From contig JAUWPG010000001.1 in the NCBI GenBank assembly GCA_030611725.1, positions 12,323 through 76,322 on the forward strand: a DNA stretch of 64,000 bases. Direction: 5' to 3'. Positions 34,759 through 41,495 of this stretch are shown in pieces. This stretch comes from Gammaproteobacteria bacterium (GTDB taxonomy: Bacteria > Pseudomonadota > Gammaproteobacteria > PS1 > Pseudothioglobaceae). The translations under genes and the position numbers were made by a program. Position 1 is the stretch's first letter. Every line of letters starts with the position of its first letter. The notes under the pieces are model-generated. The model was not told where the DNA came from and did no database searches. It was given only the letters and a program-made list of their open reading frames with translations.

Positions 34759-34838
34759 ACCTTTTCTTGGTAACTTTATGGTCAATTTTGATTGTTATTC
34801 AGTGTTTATAATACCGATATTATGTTTATTTAATTCTT

Positions 34839-34886
34839 GAAAGAGAAAGAGAAAGAGAAAGAGAAAGAGAAAGAGAAAGAGAAAGA
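34839..34886. repeat. Hexanucleotide microsatellite (GAAAGA)x8, part of a 50-nt pure polypurine tract
   Basis: Eight perfect tandem units counted in the sequence. Intergenic; no ORF with a start codon spans it. Confidence 0.95.
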
Positions 34887-35273
34887 GGCAGCCGCCTAAC
34901 TAAACTTGAGGAGAATAAAAAAAACGACTACCTAGTAGAAAGTCATAAATATATCTCGGGGGGAGAATATGGCTTTCTAATTATTATTATACCATAATAT
35001 ATTAATATATTAATATAAATTCAATCAGGTCAATCCACATGAATTATAAACTTGAAAAGTTCGTTAAGCCTTGTGTATCAAAAAAAACCCGGTTGCCGGA
35101 ATGTCAAAGACCAAAAAAATCACTCGAGTCACTTCAGGGTTATCGGGTTAAACCCTCTTTATGCTGGCCAACTATTCACCACCTATATACGTCAGTGAAA
35201 AATAGAACACAGCATAACTTGCCCAACCAGCCAAGCATGGTCGCGATTAACACTGCTGTAGACTACTAAAGAC

Positions 35274-35519
35274 TTATCTAACTAAACTGGCTGTTTGCCT
35301 TGGTGTAACTAATGGTACGGATATAGCTTGTACCACAAAATCATAGCCTTTATTGCCGTAGTTGTAAAAAGCACTGTCCAACTTTTTTGTAGTTGCTTCA
35401 GGCACAAGACCAAACATTGCCAATGGATTAAACACACCATAAGGCTTAGAAACTTCAGCATACGCACCTGTTGCTGTTAATAGTAGAAACAGTGCAATTG
35501 TGTTAATCATTATTTTCAT
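35274..35519 (-). CDS. Small secreted protein, function unknown
   Basis: 81 aa. Clear signal peptide MKIMINTIALFLLLTATGAYA|EV. Weak AAGAGA SD. Confidence 0.45.
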   Translation of the reverse strand: MKIMINTIALFLLLTATGAYAEVSKPYGVFNPLAMFGLVPEATTKKLDSAFYNYGNKGYDFVVQAISVPLVTPRQTASLVR

Positions 35520-35545
35520 TTTGTTTGTCTCTTGGTTAATTGTTA

Positions 35546-35599
35546 TGTTGCTACCTTATCTCTTGAGGAGAGAATAATTCTTTGGGGATGGTAGCAACA
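35546..35599. repeat. 10-bp inverted repeat TGTTGCTACC / GGTAGCAACA separated by 34 nt, upstream of the 81-aa gene
   Basis: Read directly. The loop contains a nested tctct/agaga hairpin and a CTTGAGGAG motif. Confidence 0.6.
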
Positions 35600-35788
35600 T
35601 GAAACATATTATATAATAAAATTATAATATGTCAAGTTTATAATATAAATAAACTCTAATATAGTTTAGCACCAAGATAAAAGACCAATATTAGTCAACA
35701 ATGATAGTTATATCAATAACTTTTAATTATGTTAAGATTTGATTGGTATTAACAAAAAAATATTTTTTATCTTGAGGGGGAAACGAAT

Positions 35789-35929
35789 ATGCTGAAATAC
35801 AACGGCCAAGAGATTGGCTCAAAAAAATGCGGCATCACACAGGTTTGTGTTGTTATGGCGATGTTAGCAGGTGCGTTTTTAACACTGTTAATTATTTGGG
35901 GCATTGTAGAATTTATGCCAGCAGTATGA
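35789..35929 (+). CDS. Unannotated 46-aa hydrophobic peptide (single TM)
   Basis: ATG preceded by a GAGGGGGA SD. Translation MLKYNGQEIGSKKCGITQVCVVMAMLAGAFLTLLIIWGIVEFMPAV. Below the 60-aa cutoff of the ORF track. Confidence 0.4.
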   Translation: MLKYNGQEIGSKKCGITQVCVVMAMLAGAFLTLLIIWGIVEFMPAV

Positions 35930-35992
35930 CCTTGTATGGCTCTTAAATAAAAAGAACAACCTAATGGTGCATTTTTTATTGGCCCATCATTA

Positions 35993-36036
35993 TTGTGGTC
36001 ACACCTAGAATTGACATCAGGGCAATAAAATCCCTA
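35993..36036 (-). pseudogene. Degenerate fragment of the tRNA-Phe 3' half (older att scar)
   Basis: ttgtggtcacacctagaattgacatcagggcaataaaatcccta aligns with tRNA-Phe 38024-38072, with several mismatches and a short deletion. Confidence 0.6.
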
Positions 36037-36065
36037 AACAATCTTTGCGTGTCGCTATTGTTGTT

Positions 36066-36135
36066 TTAAATATGGTGGCCACACCTAGAATTGAACTAGG
36101 GACACAGGGATTTTCAATCCCTTGCTCTACCAACT
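36066..36135 (-). repeat. Perfect 70-bp direct repeat of 38017-38086 (63 nt of the tRNA-Phe 3' portion plus 7 nt of flank); distal att site of the island
   Basis: Base-by-base identity checked. Sequences diverge immediately after ...ctaccaact. Confidence 0.9.
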
Positions 36136-36257
36136 ACTCACTTCGTTCATACCCTTTACAAACAGCTGGAAAGATTGGTCTATAACAATAATAAGACTTA
36201 AAGGCACTCCTTTTTTACATCTTAAATTATATCACTTTAGTGTCTTATTCAGGCCCC

Positions 36258-36277
36258 ACTGTACCAAAACTGTACCA
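36258..36277. repeat. Tandem direct 9-mers ACTGTACCA-aa-ACTGTACCA (11-bp phasing) inside the island near the distal att
   Basis: Read directly from the sequence. Confidence 0.7.
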
Positions 36278-36355
36278 TATTAAGCGAGTTGTGAATTGTG
36301 AGTCCTTCGACATCCAATACTAATTATAACACCTCTATCTAAAACACTTATACGG

Positions 36356-37090
36356 CTATACGCATCTATCTAATGGAAGATATGTTAATGATTCTATATC
36401 ACCCCTATCACCTTTAGACCATGTATTGAATGATAAACTAATTCTTTCTTCATCAGATTGGTTGGGAGGAACCATATGTTCCAAATTGCTTGGAAATAGT
36501 ATCAATTCACCTTTTCTCAATGGCAACATATATGTTGCACTATTGAAGTTATTAAATTCTTTAATATCAAATGATGTAACCGAATAATCACTCCTCTTGA
36601 ACTTAATAGGTGGTGATTTTTCATTGATAAGAGGATACCACACACCACTTACCATACTATTTGGATGTACATGCTCATGATGCCATTGATTTTTAGCATT
36701 CTTATTCAGCCATGACTGAGTAATAACCACTTTATTAGTAGCTCCCATTATATTAGTCACATACTCATCCAACTTCTCCTCAATAAATGCACGAATCCTT
36801 GATAACTCTGGTTTATCAAGTAAAAAAGTATCTTGTGATTGATGATTAAGCCCTCTAGACTCTCTGGCACTATCTTTAACTCTATATTTTTGCTTTTTAA
36901 TCCATTCCAATTCACTACTATAATCATTTGTATAAGGACAAACCAATACAGGAACAGAAAACAACTGTATCAATTCATTATTAGGAGTAGGAGATGGTGA
37001 TGGAGGAGTATTAGTTAAATTTTCAGACTTAAAATCTTCTTTTGTGAGTTGGGCCTTGTGGTTTAGATTTCTGTTGAACTTGTTTCCCAT
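36356..37090 (-). CDS. Putative 2OG-Fe(II) oxygenase (phage/marine 'TIGR02466 / 2OG-FeII_Oxy_5'-like, recalled from memory) with a Pro/Ser-rich N-terminal extension
   Basis: 244 aa. WLNKN....HEHVHPNSMVSGVWYP and GELILFPSNLEHMV....ERISLSFN match the remembered family pattern. N-terminal PPSPSPTP linker. Confidence 0.6.
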   Translation of the reverse strand: MGNKFNRNLNHKAQLTKEDFKSENLTNTPPSPSPTPNNELIQLFSVPVLVCPYTNDYSSELEWIKKQKYRVKDSARESRGLNHQSQDTFLLDKPELSRIRAFIEEKLDEYVTNIMGATNKVVITQSWLNKNAKNQWHHEHVHPNSMVSGVWYPLINEKSPPIKFKRSDYSVTSFDIKEFNNFNSATYMLPLRKGELILFPSNLEHMVPPNQSDEERISLSFNTWSKGDRGDIESLTYLPLDRCV

Positions 37091-37132
37091 AATTTAAATA
37101 GTCCATAATAAAATTGTTGCTTAGTCGGTGGT

Positions 37133-37546
37133 TTATTGGGTCTTTCCTTTTACAGCAGGGCACGGATGACCTCCGTATAATGCACTACATTCCCTAAAAC
37201 TACCCTTCGTGTGTGGTTTTGTTATCCGGCCATCCTTACTTGGTTTAAATATAGTGCGCTCTTTCTGGCTCTTTACAGCCGGGCACGGAAGACCGCCGTA
37301 TAATGCTAATGCACTACACTCCCTAAAACTACCCTTCGTGTGTGGTTTTGTTATCCGGCCATCCTTACTTGGTTTAAATACATTACCTCTTCTTTCCTGG
37401 CCCTTAAATGCATTCATATTAGGTTTCTTACCTTGGAATTTCTTAGGACTAAAATCCCTAATATGTGGGGAAGCATAAGAAGCATTGTTACCAGTAACCA
37501 ACAATAAAGTTAATGCACTAGATAGTAGTATTGTTATTTGTTGCAT
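37133..37546 (-). CDS. Secreted basic Lys/Pro-rich protein with two 43-aa tandem repeats, each carrying 2 Cys
   Basis: The ATG at 37546 is preceded by a GGGGGAAGAG SD. Signal peptide MQQITILLSSALTLLLVTGNNASYAS. Repeats FKPSKDGRITKPHTKGSFRECSAL(AL)YGG(L/H)PCPAVK. Confidence 0.5.
   Translation of the reverse strand: MQQITILLSSALTLLLVTGNNASYASPHIRDFSPKKFQGKKPNMNAFKGQERRGNVFKPSKDGRITKPHTKGSFRECSALALYGGLPCPAVKSQKERTIFKPSKDGRITKPHTKGSFRECSALYGGHPCPAVKGKTQ
37142..37380. repeat. Tandem duplication with a 129-bp period; the 61-nt cores 37191-37251 and 37320-37380 are identical
   Basis: Direct comparison of the two units. Confidence 0.9.
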
Positions 37547-37925
37547 ACTCTTCCCCCAAAGATAATTAATACTTATCACTATACTCCGCATTGCCTCGGA
37601 CACATCGCTAATTGTAATGTCTGAAATTGGTTTAATCTCAATACTCTTAACCCAGAAATCTAGCCTAGTACTTTGCTTCTTATAGTCTTTACCTTTTGTA
37701 CTCATTAGATAGGTAATCAGAAGTCAGTTTCTCCAGCGTTTGGTTCGATTTGTTACTGTTTCCATAAACCAGAAGCAGTTCTTTATCGTTCTCTACACGC
37801 TGAGCAAATTGCAATGCCAGCTTTTTAGATGGGGATGTCCTAGATATTTGCCTAATACCTTTCTTTCTAATGATAACGCGGTAAGCATTTCCTTTAGAAC
37901 GTGGTCGTTTTTGAATGGTAGCCAT
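37547..37925 (-). pseudogene. Tyrosine-recombinase (phage integrase) N-terminal relic, frameshifted and lacking the catalytic domain
   Basis: MATIQKRPRSKGNAYRVIIRKKG..ISRT..SKKLALQFAQRVE is the typical integrase N-terminus. It continues in another frame as GKDYKKQSTRLDFWVKSIEIKPISDITISDV. No R-H-R-Y catalytic region follows. Confidence 0.65.
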
Positions 37926-38023
37926 TAAGGCTTCCAATTTAGTGTGCCTTTTTTTGACTTATTAGCAAGGAAAATTAATGTGAATAAAATCCACTATTCC
38001 TTTGAGTTATATGAAGTTAAATA

Positions 38024-38099
38024 TGGTGGCCACACCTAGAATTGAACTAGGGACACAGGGATTTTCAATCCCTTGCTCTACCAACTGAGCTATGTGGCC
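38024..38099 (-). tRNA. tRNA-Phe (GAA)
   Basis: 76-nt cloverleaf: GGCCACA acceptor stem, anticodon loop TTGAAAA, GGTTCAATTCT T-arm, encoded CCA. Close to E. coli tRNA-Phe. Confidence 0.92.
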
Positions 38100-38144
38100 T
38101 TAAAAGGCAAAATTATACCAACAAATTACAAGATTAATTGGAAA

Positions 38145-39089
<945 letters not shown>

Positions 39090-39191
39090 TTAAATACCAA
39101 TCCTTTATACTTATACACAGTTTGAAACATTATAAAGGAAACGCTGATTCAGTATGCTTATTTATGATGCACCAACCAACCCAAAATTACC

Positions 39192-41495
39192 TTGAAAAAT
39201 AACACTCAATCCAAACTTAAAAAACGCACCTCTCAGCCTCGCTCTCGAGCGATGAATGAAGTTTTGTTTATTGTCTTAATCACATTAAGTCTTGTTTATC
39301 TATTAGCACTCTTTACACACTCCCCCCTAGAAAACCCCTACTCTAGTTCTGACATACTAAGCACACCTGTACTTAATCAATCAGGTACTGTTGGTGCTTA
39401 TTTGAGTGATTTTTCATTATCGATATTGGGCTATTCTGCTTATTTGATTCCGCTTTCACTGATTTGGCTAGGATGGTGTATCCATAAGAATACAGGGCAG
39501 CAGTCCACCAGTCGCACTGTGTTCATAATTCGTTTTTTTGCCTTTATTGTGCTCTTATTATTTACTTCAGCACTTTTGAGTATCGACACACCTGACCCAC
39601 TTGATGGAGGTGGGCCAATCGCTGGTGGTTATGTTGGTTACTTGATGCATCTCTATTTTGGAACATTGCTTGGTTCGGCGGCATCTCTTATTTATTTTAG
39701 TATGATGATGATTAGCTTCAGCGTTGCCAGCACTGCCTCATGGATAAATATCTTTACTTCTACTGGCGGCATGCTTAATACATTATTAGAAAAACTTAGA
39801 AACTCTCGTAAAAAAGTTAAAACTCGTAAAGCGGTTAAAATGGTGATTACCCCCAAGCAAACCAGTGCACCAAAACCGAATGTGTTGGCCAAAATTAAAT
39901 CAGCCAAAATCAAGCCCGGTAAAAAAATCGCACCAGCTTCTTCTAACCTGTTTAACACTAAGGCGCTCAGCGGCTTACCTGATTTATCACTACTTGATGA
40001 AATCAATGTAAATACCAATGGTTATTCTGAGCAAGCACTTGAGAATATGTCACGCCAAGTTGAGATTAAGCTTAAAGACTTTGGTTTTGACGTCAGTATT
40101 ACCACCGTTACTCCAGGACCAGTGGTTACCCAGTTTGAAATTTCACTAGCACGAGGTGTTAAAGTTTCACAGATTATGAACCTGAATAAAGACTTGGCCC
40201 GTGCACTACTGGTAGAAAGTGTACGTATTGTTGATGTTATTCCTGGGAAGCCGGTGATTGGACTAGAGATTCCTAATGCCGAACGTGAAATGATTAGCTT
40301 GAAAGAAATTCTCGCCTCTGAAGCCTTTGCCAAATCAAGCTCTATGCTTAGTATGGGACTAGGAAAAGACATTAACGGCTTGCCTGTCATTGCCAATTTG
40401 GCGAAAATGCCACACCTGCTCGTTGCTGGTGCTACTGGTATGGGCAAATCAGTTGGTATTAATGCCATTATTTTAAGTGTGCTCTATAAGGCCAGTCCGG
40501 ATGAAGTACGCATGATCATGATTGACCCAAAAATTGTTGAACTTGCTTGCTATGCCGATATCCCACACTTACTGACACCTGTTGTCACTGACATGAACCA
40601 AGCTGCCAGTGCGCTCTGGTGGTGTGTAAATGAAATGGAACGTCGTTATTCTTTACTGGCTAAATTTGGCGTTCGTAATATCGATGGTTTTAACGACAAA
40701 CTCAAAAAAGCCAAAGACAAAGGCAGTCCATTGCTAGACCCCTCCTTTAACGAAAATATTGCTGAAGAAGGTGAGACTGCTCCTGAACTAGAGGCGTTAC
40801 CACTAATTATGCTGGTGATTGATGAATATGCCGATATGCTTGGTGCTCTTGCCCAAGAAGACCGAGCTAAAGCCAAACGAGTTGAAGCCTTAATTGTACG
40901 TCTAGCTCAAAAAGCCCGTGCTGCCGGCATTCACTTAATTATCGCTACACAGCGTCCAAGCGTAGACGTTATTACTGGCTTGATTAAATCCAACGTGCCA
41001 ACTCGTATTGCTTTTAAAGTATCTTCGAAAGTAGACTCGCGTACCATTCTTGACCAAGGTGGCGCAGAACAGTTGCTCGGCATGGGTGATATGCTTTATA
41101 TGACGCCAGGAATTTCACACCTAACTCGCGTACATGGTGCCTTTGTAGATGATGGTGAAATTGAGCGTGTGGTTGAATTTTTACGCAAAAACTCAGAAAC
41201 CAATTACCTTGACGGCATTCTTAATGTCCAACGAGAATCAGCCGACACGCCTGGGGGGACTAGCAGTTCTTCCGGCCCTTCTGGGGAGCTTGATCCTTTA
41301 TATGATGAAGCCGTTCAAATTATCACTTCATCACGTCGTGCATCCATCTCTAGCTTACAACGACGTATGCGTATTGGTTATAACCGTGCCGCGCGTATTA
41401 TCGAAGATATGGAGGCCAGTGGCGTAGTTTCAACCATGAACAGCGCTGGTAATCGCCAAGTGCTTGCACCAGAGCCAATTAACCATGATGAATAA
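39192..41495 (+). CDS. ftsK: DNA translocase FtsK
   Basis: 767 aa. N-terminal TM helices, Walker A GATGMGKSV, C-terminal gamma winged-helix domain. Exact start uncertain (TTG at 39192 or ATG at 39252). Confidence 0.93.
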   Translation: MKNNTQSKLKKRTSQPRSRAMNEVLFIVLITLSLVYLLALFTHSPLENPYSSSDILSTPVLNQSGTVGAYLSDFSLSILGYSAYLIPLSLIWLGWCIHKNTGQQSTSRTVFIIRFFAFIVLLLFTSALLSIDTPDPLDGGGPIAGGYVGYLMHLYFGTLLGSAASLIYFSMMMISFSVASTASWINIFTSTGGMLNTLLEKLRNSRKKVKTRKAVKMVITPKQTSAPKPNVLAKIKSAKIKPGKKIAPASSNLFNTKALSGLPDLSLLDEINVNTNGYSEQALENMSRQVEIKLKDFGFDVSITTVTPGPVVTQFEISLARGVKVSQIMNLNKDLARALLVESVRIVDVIPGKPVIGLEIPNAEREMISLKEILASEAFAKSSSMLSMGLGKDINGLPVIANLAKMPHLLVAGATGMGKSVGINAIILSVLYKASPDEVRMIMIDPKIVELACYADIPHLLTPVVTDMNQAASALWWCVNEMERRYSLLAKFGVRNIDGFNDKLKKAKDKGSPLLDPSFNENIAEEGETAPELEALPLIMLVIDEYADMLGALAQEDRAKAKRVEALIVRLAQKARAAGIHLIIATQRPSVDVITGLIKSNVPTRIAFKVSSKVDSRTILDQGGAEQLLGMGDMLYMTPGISHLTRVHGAFVDDGEIERVVEFLRKNSETNYLDGILNVQRESADTPGGTSSSSGPSGELDPLYDEAVQIITSSRRASISSLQRRMRIGYNRAARIIEDMEASGVVSTMNSAGNRQVLAPEPINHDE

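Follow-up and report, generated by a model that had tools for sequence, protein, structure and literature searches.

Introduction

Genomic islands with P4-type tyrosine integrases are known at the phenylalanine tRNA gene (tRNA-Phe), examples being the pheV and pheU islands of Enterobacteriaceae and the Mesorhizobium symbiosis island, which resides at phe-tRNA. The direct repeats of these islands are typically ~17-25 nt long and start in the T-loop. Long attachment site (att) identity is found in the actinomycete elements pSAM2 (~58 bp) and SLP1 (~112 bp), where the identity blocks start at the anticodon loop. In streptococci, the deletion derivatives of integrative and conjugative elements (ICEs) known as cis-mobilisable elements (CIMEs) keep the attL and attR ends without the recombination module and are associated with accretion-mobilisation. 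Here we analyse a 64,000-nt stretch of the genome of a marine gammaproteobacterium of the family Pseudothioglobaceae (contig JAUWPG010000001.1; the whole stretch is called the window), in which the segment 36066-38016 is very probably the decayed remnant of an integrative element that a tyrosine integrase inserted into the sole tRNA-Phe gene of the genome.

This remnant, hereafter the islet, shares with the pheV/pheU and Mesorhizobium islands the position of the integrase at the 3' end of an intact tRNA-Phe gene, boundaries formed by repeats of the tRNA 3' part, variable presence and decay of the integrase into a pseudogene. It differs from them in its repeat of 63+7 nt that starts in the D-loop, in its size of 1.95 kb and in its streamlined marine host of 1.16 Mb. 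With pSAM2 and SLP1 it has in common an identity block that spans most of the tRNA 3' part, although their hosts and integrase lineages are unrelated to those described here and the block of the family to which the islet belongs starts in the D-loop. Repeats at tRNA islands in Klebsiella were reported to range from 15 to 221 bp, the recognised integration sublocations being the anticodon loop, the T-loop and the asymmetric 3' end, with the D-loop described as a novel sublocation for a few islands (bioRxiv 10.1101/2020.11.02.365908).

Probable integration at the 3' end of tRNA-Phe

A repeat search showed that the two copies of the direct repeat (Table 1) are identical at 70/70 bases and lie 1951 nt apart, each consisting of tRNA-Phe nt 14-76 (63 nt) followed by 7 nt beyond the CCA end. 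A perfect match of 70 nt cannot have arisen by chance. ARAGORN and Rfam agreed on a single intact tRNA-Phe(GAA) gene, and the Rfam scan returned this tRNA and a tRNA fragment, with nothing else matched. An initial annotation made from the sequence alone had proposed a perfect 70-bp direct repeat whose distal copy leaves the tRNA sequence immediately after ...CTACCAACT, and both statements were borne out by the comparison of the two copies. The host genome is a draft of 81 contigs estimated to be 99.8% complete, and neither a further copy of the 70-nt repeat nor a second tRNA-Phe gene was found in it.

Related genomes indicate that the intervening DNA was acquired. In six genomes of the same genus (G010, G005, G001, G009, G007 and G003), pyrB-ygfB and an AT-rich block equivalent to window positions 34760-35990 are kept at 72-79% identity and are followed by tRNA-Phe, trxB and ftsK, the gap between block and tRNA ranging from none to a few hundred unaligned bases. 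The block abuts tRNA-Phe directly in G010, G005 and G001, whose junctions were read, while ~85-270 unaligned bases stand between the two in G009 and G003. In G010, window segments 35326-36014 and 38019-40193 align next to each other with 27 nt in common; these shared bases are those of the tRNA 3' end, matching both the real gene and a degenerate copy that is described below with the older scar. A terminator-bearing flank adjoins the tRNA in G010, G005 and G001, and the sequence immediately to the left of 35991 in the window is its homologue. Since the left flank is conserved and joined to tRNA-Phe in congeners, the DNA that is extra in this genome corresponds to 35991-38016, and the tRNA-Phe site is empty in at least six congeneric genomes. 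The alignment with relatives that the initial annotation had recommended thus revealed an arrangement that not all of them carry, and its reading of the repeats as an attL/attR signature of integration at a tRNA 3' end is supported by the repeat, the empty sites and the integrase homology described in the next section.

The same observations bear on the view that the repeat arose long ago by duplication of part of the tRNA, with no involvement of site-specific integration. What speaks for this view is the repeat itself and nothing further; the empty sites in relatives, the identification of the relic as an integrase and the conservation of the element arms across tRNA-His and tRNA-Phe elements have already refuted it, leaving it a practically negligible probability.

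The left limit of the accessory DNA was also considered. A larger accessory region, extending over 34760-38016 and including the AT-rich block as an older island remnant, would accommodate the low GC content of the block (33.6%), its content of nothing but small orphan open reading frames (ORFs) and its location beyond the degenerate tRNA fragment. The block, however, occupies the same position in the genus genomes, at the identity given above, its conservation extends in part to other genera of the host's family, and it abuts the tRNA directly in three congeners. An island reaching to 34760 was rejected because the block is conserved in the genus; this very unlikely alternative is already contradicted, and the block is native DNA of the genus rather than part of an island. 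In a streamlined genome of this size, the analysis identifies ~2 kb of truly accessory DNA, making the locus useful for annotation and strain-level comparison of Pseudothioglobus-like bacteria.

The integrase relic and its truncation

Beside trxB and tRNA-Phe, the congener G008 has an intact gene for a tyrosine integrase of 345 aa (PF00589, E = 6e-29), to which the coding remains next to the tRNA in the window are homologous. The minus-strand frame 37692-37925 is 55% identical to amino acids 9-85 of the G008 integrase, and the frame 37589-37696 is 64% identical to its amino acids 85-120 and 81% identical to amino acids 94-129 of a metagenomic Phe-type integrase (L094). Overall, the relic is 51-81% identical to intact PF00589 integrases located at the same locus in relatives. 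The N-terminal integrase relic that had been suspected at 37547-37925 was in this way given demonstrable homology to the intact proteins of G008 and L094. A single additional base in an A-run near 37694-37697 puts the two frames out of register, and no counterpart of integrase amino acids 121-345, catalytic domain included, is present in the islet.

In a maximum-likelihood tree, the relic, which fills only 33% of the alignment columns, grouped with the two tRNA-Phe integrases of G008 and L094 (support 90/85). This Phe clade lies inside a clade supported at 100/100 together with Pseudothioglobus integrases associated with tRNA-His, tRNA-Arg and tRNA-Pro, with Methylococcales integrases located beside tRNA-Lys as the sister group.

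The integrase homology ends at ~37589-37592, and no more than 3 nt separate this end from the beginning of a different homology: from 37592 downward, the sequence matches, at 82-85% identity, the leader and signal peptide of secreted-protein genes found on the host's own contig C29 and in G003 (contig C32). The simplest reading would be that an internal deletion took out the DNA between integrase codon ~120 and the leader of a downstream cargo gene. Such a deletion would have removed the remainder of the integrase and whatever lay behind it, fusing the integrase stub to the cargo-gene leader and leaving two cargo genes intact.

In a draft genome of 81 contigs, one may also ask whether the islet is an assembly artefact, a contig of a co-occurring strain or organism having been joined through the shared tRNA sequence. 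The site is indeed hard to assemble, as the assemblies of four congeners (G002, G004, G006 and G008) break exactly at tRNA-Phe. The distal junction is nevertheless specific, with element arm, tRNA fragment, scar and native flank following each other in order, the integrase relic occupies the position of the intact gene of G008, and the 70-nt repeat is shorter than normal reads. An artefact of this kind is extremely unlikely, and the decayed element remains the reading followed below.

A family of tRNA-His and tRNA-Phe elements with a fixed repeat boundary

The islet could be placed in a family of Pseudothioglobus-type tRNA-His/Phe elements, which is defined in this analysis. A single-cell genome (L028) carries an 8.8-kb element at tRNA-His, whose 133-nt boundary repeats are 98% identical and start at tRNA nt 13. 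The distal arm of this element ends with TGAACGAAGTGA plus 2 nt directly ahead of AGTTGGTAGAGC, and so does the distal arm of the islet at 36136-36149; over 36130-36149, the window matches the arm motif of the family and the adjoining AGTTGGTAGAGC of the tRNA fragment exactly. Scanning with a 26-nt arm/tRNA pattern retrieved 24 marine metagenome contigs, with a tRNA-His fragment in 21/24 and a tRNA-Phe fragment in 3/24, and in all of them (24/24) the tRNA sequence ran on toward the CCA end or until the contig stopped. The pattern had no match in IMG/VR viral contigs. When the arm motif was searched in the host's own genome and in two Pseudothioglobus genomes, the site in the window was the sole match, the far end of the host's tRNA-His element on contig C50 not being assembled.

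As the boundary is built into the 26-nt pattern, the two copies of the repeat were also aligned with each other at four loci (the window, L028, L093 and L099), and the repeat started at tRNA nt 13/14 in 4/4 of these. The D-arms of tRNA-His and tRNA-Phe are identical. The distal arms (L090-L113, and window 36136-36200) share a hairpin, whose stem changes compensate between His and Phe types and which lies in a region ~75 nt upstream of the tRNA fragment in L090-L113; an AGCTCA element resembling the 5' D-stem is found ~40 nt upstream. Both features are partly decayed in the window, where the hairpin stands ahead of the P' arm motif at ~36150-36175. On the opposite side, G008, L094 and L099 have P arms similar to that of the islet over its first ~15 nt, a stretch that likewise resembles TATT(C/T)(A/G)A, the native flank of empty sites. 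No repeat was found within 10 kb at the elements L025 and L026 or at the Methylococcales tRNA-Lys loci.

The 63-nt tRNA overlap had been regarded as unusually long for an att core. The overlap is long, but it falls inside the published 15-221 bp range and is a fixed trait of the family. Identity on the 5' side of a crossover would not be needed for rebuilding the tRNA, yet the boundary is fixed, which suggests, without proving it, that strands are exchanged in or beside the D-loop. The element's attP would have carried tRNA-Phe nt 14-76 and a few bases of flank; recombination would have joined the 5' 13 nt of the chromosomal gene to the element-borne 3' part, giving a working tRNA, and the chromosomal 3' part would have ended up at the far side of the element, where it forms the distal copy of the 70-nt repeat. 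A crossover in or next to the D-loop would agree with an identity block that starts at AGTTGGTAGAGC in every family member, beside the arm motif TGAACGAAGTGA.

Such a crossover, if true, would represent a rarely reported sublocation, and the fixed D-loop boundary of the family makes it directly testable. A precedent is given by the D-loop islands of Klebsiella, with which the family shares the D-loop boundary and the use of the 5' limit of att identity as a proxy for the crossover (bioRxiv 10.1101/2020.11.02.365908). Of the two islands with this sublocation, one (arg2A-VII) is inserted upstream of the tRNA gene, at its 5' end (bioRxiv 10.1101/2020.11.02.365908). Unlike arg2A-VII, the elements described here form a whole family with a 3'-ward block extending from the D-loop to the CCA end; in both cases the crossover is a proxy drawn from the limit of identity. 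In other respects the islet, as a decayed member of a family of marine tRNA-targeting elements, is an island remnant of an ordinary kind, and in our judgement the apparent family-wide D-loop boundary is its only feature of wider interest. Given the hairpin and the AGCTCA element, attP resembles an entire tRNA gene interrupted in the D-loop by an insert of ~40 nt, which would carry the structurally conserved hairpin and the integrase-proximal motif.

Related elements and residual mobility

The members of the family form a natural series: an 11.8-kb element that has a replication gene stands at one end, islets of 1.3-2 kb stand at the other, and tandem arrays lie in between. At the upper end, L093 (Ga0222718_10004243) is a full-length, 11.76-kb tRNA-His element with its integrase next to the tRNA, a 701-aa Prim-Pol/D5 primase-helicase (Prim-Pol + D5_N domains), an inverse autotransporter of 926 aa and a number of orphan genes. 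Its integrase beside the tRNA, its primase-helicase with these two domains and its cargo recall the P4-like satellites, those resembling phage-inducible chromosomal islands (PICI-like) and further integrative elements that have a Prim-Pol/D5 primase-helicase. Unlike such satellites, L093 has no recognised capsid, packaging or helper-interaction genes, and the islet in the window has no replication module. No Prim-Pol/D5 primase-helicase is encoded between the islet repeats; its presence in L093 would make the islet a deletion derivative.

Tandem arrays are seen in L090, L102 and L094, where a further integrase gene begins no more than ~100 nt beyond the displaced tRNA fragment; this gene is complete in L090 and L102, whereas the contig end cuts it in L094; in L097, only a 30-aa integrase stub follows the fragment. 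At the lower end of the series, L099 (JYMV01032125.1, 4089-5440) has a 1.27-kb islet between tRNA-Phe and a 63-nt fragment with 3 mismatches, set in the same lolA-ftsK-trxB context as in the window and containing two small lipoprotein-like genes and no integrase. The host itself has a second family member (L062, contig C50, 201-1390), with an intact 338-aa integrase beside a tRNA-Pro/Arg/His cluster. Contig C50 ends ~200 nt past this integrase, which leaves the tRNA-His element incompletely assembled.

The islet resembles CIMEs in that it keeps both repeat ends and has lost its integrase, within a family where tandem arrays occur together with autonomous relatives; unlike in CIMEs, conjugation genes are found nowhere in the family as sampled. 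This resemblance raises the alternative that the islet is non-autonomous yet still mobilisable, both att sites being kept and the integrase being provided in trans, for example by the tRNA-His member on C50 or by a tandem newcomer. Consistent with it are the perfect repeat copies, an arm motif equal to the family consensus, a recombination module reduced to an integrase stub, the intact paralogous integrase beside tRNA-His in the same genome, the three tandem arrays and the mini-islet of L099, which likewise has no integrase and shares both the arms and the site. Over the N-terminal region compared, however, the C50 integrase is only 33-39% identical to the relic and it falls outside the Phe clade, and the distal arm shows partial decay of its hairpin and AGCTCA element, so that we consider present mobilisability unlikely.

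Taken as a decayed remnant, the islet would at present be unable to move alone and could be lost by homologous recombination between its repeats, although a related integrase acting in trans, or tandem accretion, might move it. A broader proposal, in which a widespread marine family has an integrase that exchanges strands in the tRNA D-loop and integrase-less islets are mobilisable via tandem accretion, is offered tentatively and with some doubt.

Cargo genes and organisation of the islet

The features of the locus are collected in Table 1. All islet genes are co-oriented with the tRNA. A terminator scan predicted no terminator between tRNA-Phe and these genes, and their expression by read-through is possible.

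Table 1. Coordinates of the features recognised at the tRNA-Phe locus (positions in the window).
Feature	Position	Strand	Remarks
tRNA-Phe(GAA), intact, the only one in the genome	38024-38099	minus	nt 14-76 within proximal repeat copy
Proximal 70-nt repeat copy	38017-38086		7 nt of flank + tRNA nt 76-14
P arm, between tRNA 3' end and integrase start	37938-38016	minus	
Tyrosine integrase relic, aa ~1-120	37589-37937	minus	two frames (37692-37925, 37589-37696)
Truncation junction	37592/37593		integrase homology stops, homology to leader of secreted-protein gene starts
Secreted basic Cys-containing repeat protein, 137 aa	37133-37546	minus	signal peptide
2-oxoglutarate (2OG)-Fe(II) oxygenase, 244 aa, full length	36356-37090	minus	PF13759 / TIGR02466 / phrog_81
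Distal end (P' arm), non-coding	36136-36355	minus	motif TGAACGAAGTGAGT (tRNA sense) at 36136-36149
Distal 70-nt repeat copy	36066-36135		displaced tRNA-Phe fragment (nt 14-76) + 7 nt
Older scar	35991-36065		decayed tRNA-Phe 3' fragment + ~30-37 nt of other sequence; homologous to G004:C182 end

The two cargo genes that had been placed between the repeats turned out to encode an oxygenase and a secreted repeat protein. The first was identified by its matches to PF13759 (E = 4e-21), TIGR02466 (above the cut-off) and phrog_81 (E = 2e-42). Its nearest homologues, ~60% identical, come from marine metagenomes (L070-L074), where they belong to a conserved trio with a radical S-adenosylmethionine (SAM)/SPASM protein and a second 2OG-Fe(II) oxygenase. 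The corresponding contigs are phage-like, with many small orphan or unannotated genes and, in some cases, Trp-halogenase and GmrSD-like genes. The oxygenase was tried as an anchor to a parent element and rejected for this purpose: viral and metagenome contigs gave no close relative of it, and the ~60% identical homologues sit in these phage-like contigs and not in islands. Homologues in named phages are 30-40% identical and belong mostly to cyanophages and pelagiphages, with one in a gammaproteobacterial phage.

The 137-aa secreted repeat protein had no family match. Its gene holds a 129-nt tandem duplication at 37149-37380, and the N-terminus of the protein together with a 45-nt leader is 82-85% identical to paralogues elsewhere. 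Copies of this gene family (window 37133-37592; L002, 1-171; L017, 5086-5792) adjoin, in all locations other than the islet, a conserved 106-aa gene. Their repeat regions are wholly different, with 129-nt units in the window and another unit in G003.

The gene content of the islet was also inspected for the hallmarks of other mobile elements. Structural, packaging and lysis genes of a prophage are absent from it, the phrog_81 auxiliary oxygenase and the orphan secreted protein being the only genes found. Pfam domains of relaxases, coupling proteins and type IV secretion, expected of ICEs or integrative and mobilisable elements (IMEs), were detected neither in the islet ORFs nor in the sampled relatives. 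The comparison with phage databases proposed in the initial annotation gave, at the DNA level, matches of phage records to the tRNA only.

Several points weigh against the interpretation of the islet as a decayed integrative element or against parts of it. The viral and metagenome contigs searched gave neither a close relative of its cargo set nor a parent element. The deviation in base composition is weak: for the interval 34759-38023 singled out by the initial annotation, the islet deviates modestly (35.8% GC versus 40.5% in the window, the 2.7th percentile), but the part up to 35990 is native and equally AT-rich. The frameshift of the integrase relic could be a sequencing error, the catalytic domain being gone regardless. 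Finally, the crossover position is drawn from the identity boundary only, and the metagenome contigs were picked by a pattern that contains this boundary.

An older scar and probable variation at the tRNA-Phe site

Between the native flank and the distal repeat copy lies a third, degenerate copy of the repeat, matching at 22/24 bases over 35991-36014 and followed by tRNA-like remains. Its start lies where the tRNA 3' end was located ancestrally, and tRNA-like sequence, interrupted by a short deletion, can be followed from there as far as the anticodon stem. A longer homologous version of ~77 nt is present in a sister species, at the end of contig C182 of G004 (L075, last ~100 nt), behind a different native flank. 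This scar marks an earlier insertion at tRNA-Phe and shows that the site had been used at least once before. Because its tRNA identity starts at the anticodon stem and not in the D-loop, the scar probably derives from another type of element, later deleted almost fully. The 51-nt spacer separating the old scar from the repeat might be the remainder of a P arm of the same family, an arm of the older element or native flank: it has a 10-mer in common with the present P arm (shuffle p ~0.004), is also similar to a native flank (p ~0.014), and is contiguous with the tRNA-like fragment common to G004.

With two scars in the window and breaks in congener assemblies at the same site, tRNA-Phe emerges as a recurrent insertion hotspot. 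The locus probably varies within populations, and the assembly breaks fit such variation. The breaks fall at or inside tRNA-Phe in the draft assemblies G002 (end of C30, and C43), G004 (C132/C182), G006 (C58) and G008 (C75/C97). In G002, part of the conserved block is duplicated beside the tRNA on a second contig. In the window, this native block (34760-35990) contains a (GAAAGA)8 microsatellite at 34839-34888 and two ORFs, one for an 81-aa secreted protein (35274-35519, minus strand) and the other for a 46-aa membrane protein (35789-35929).

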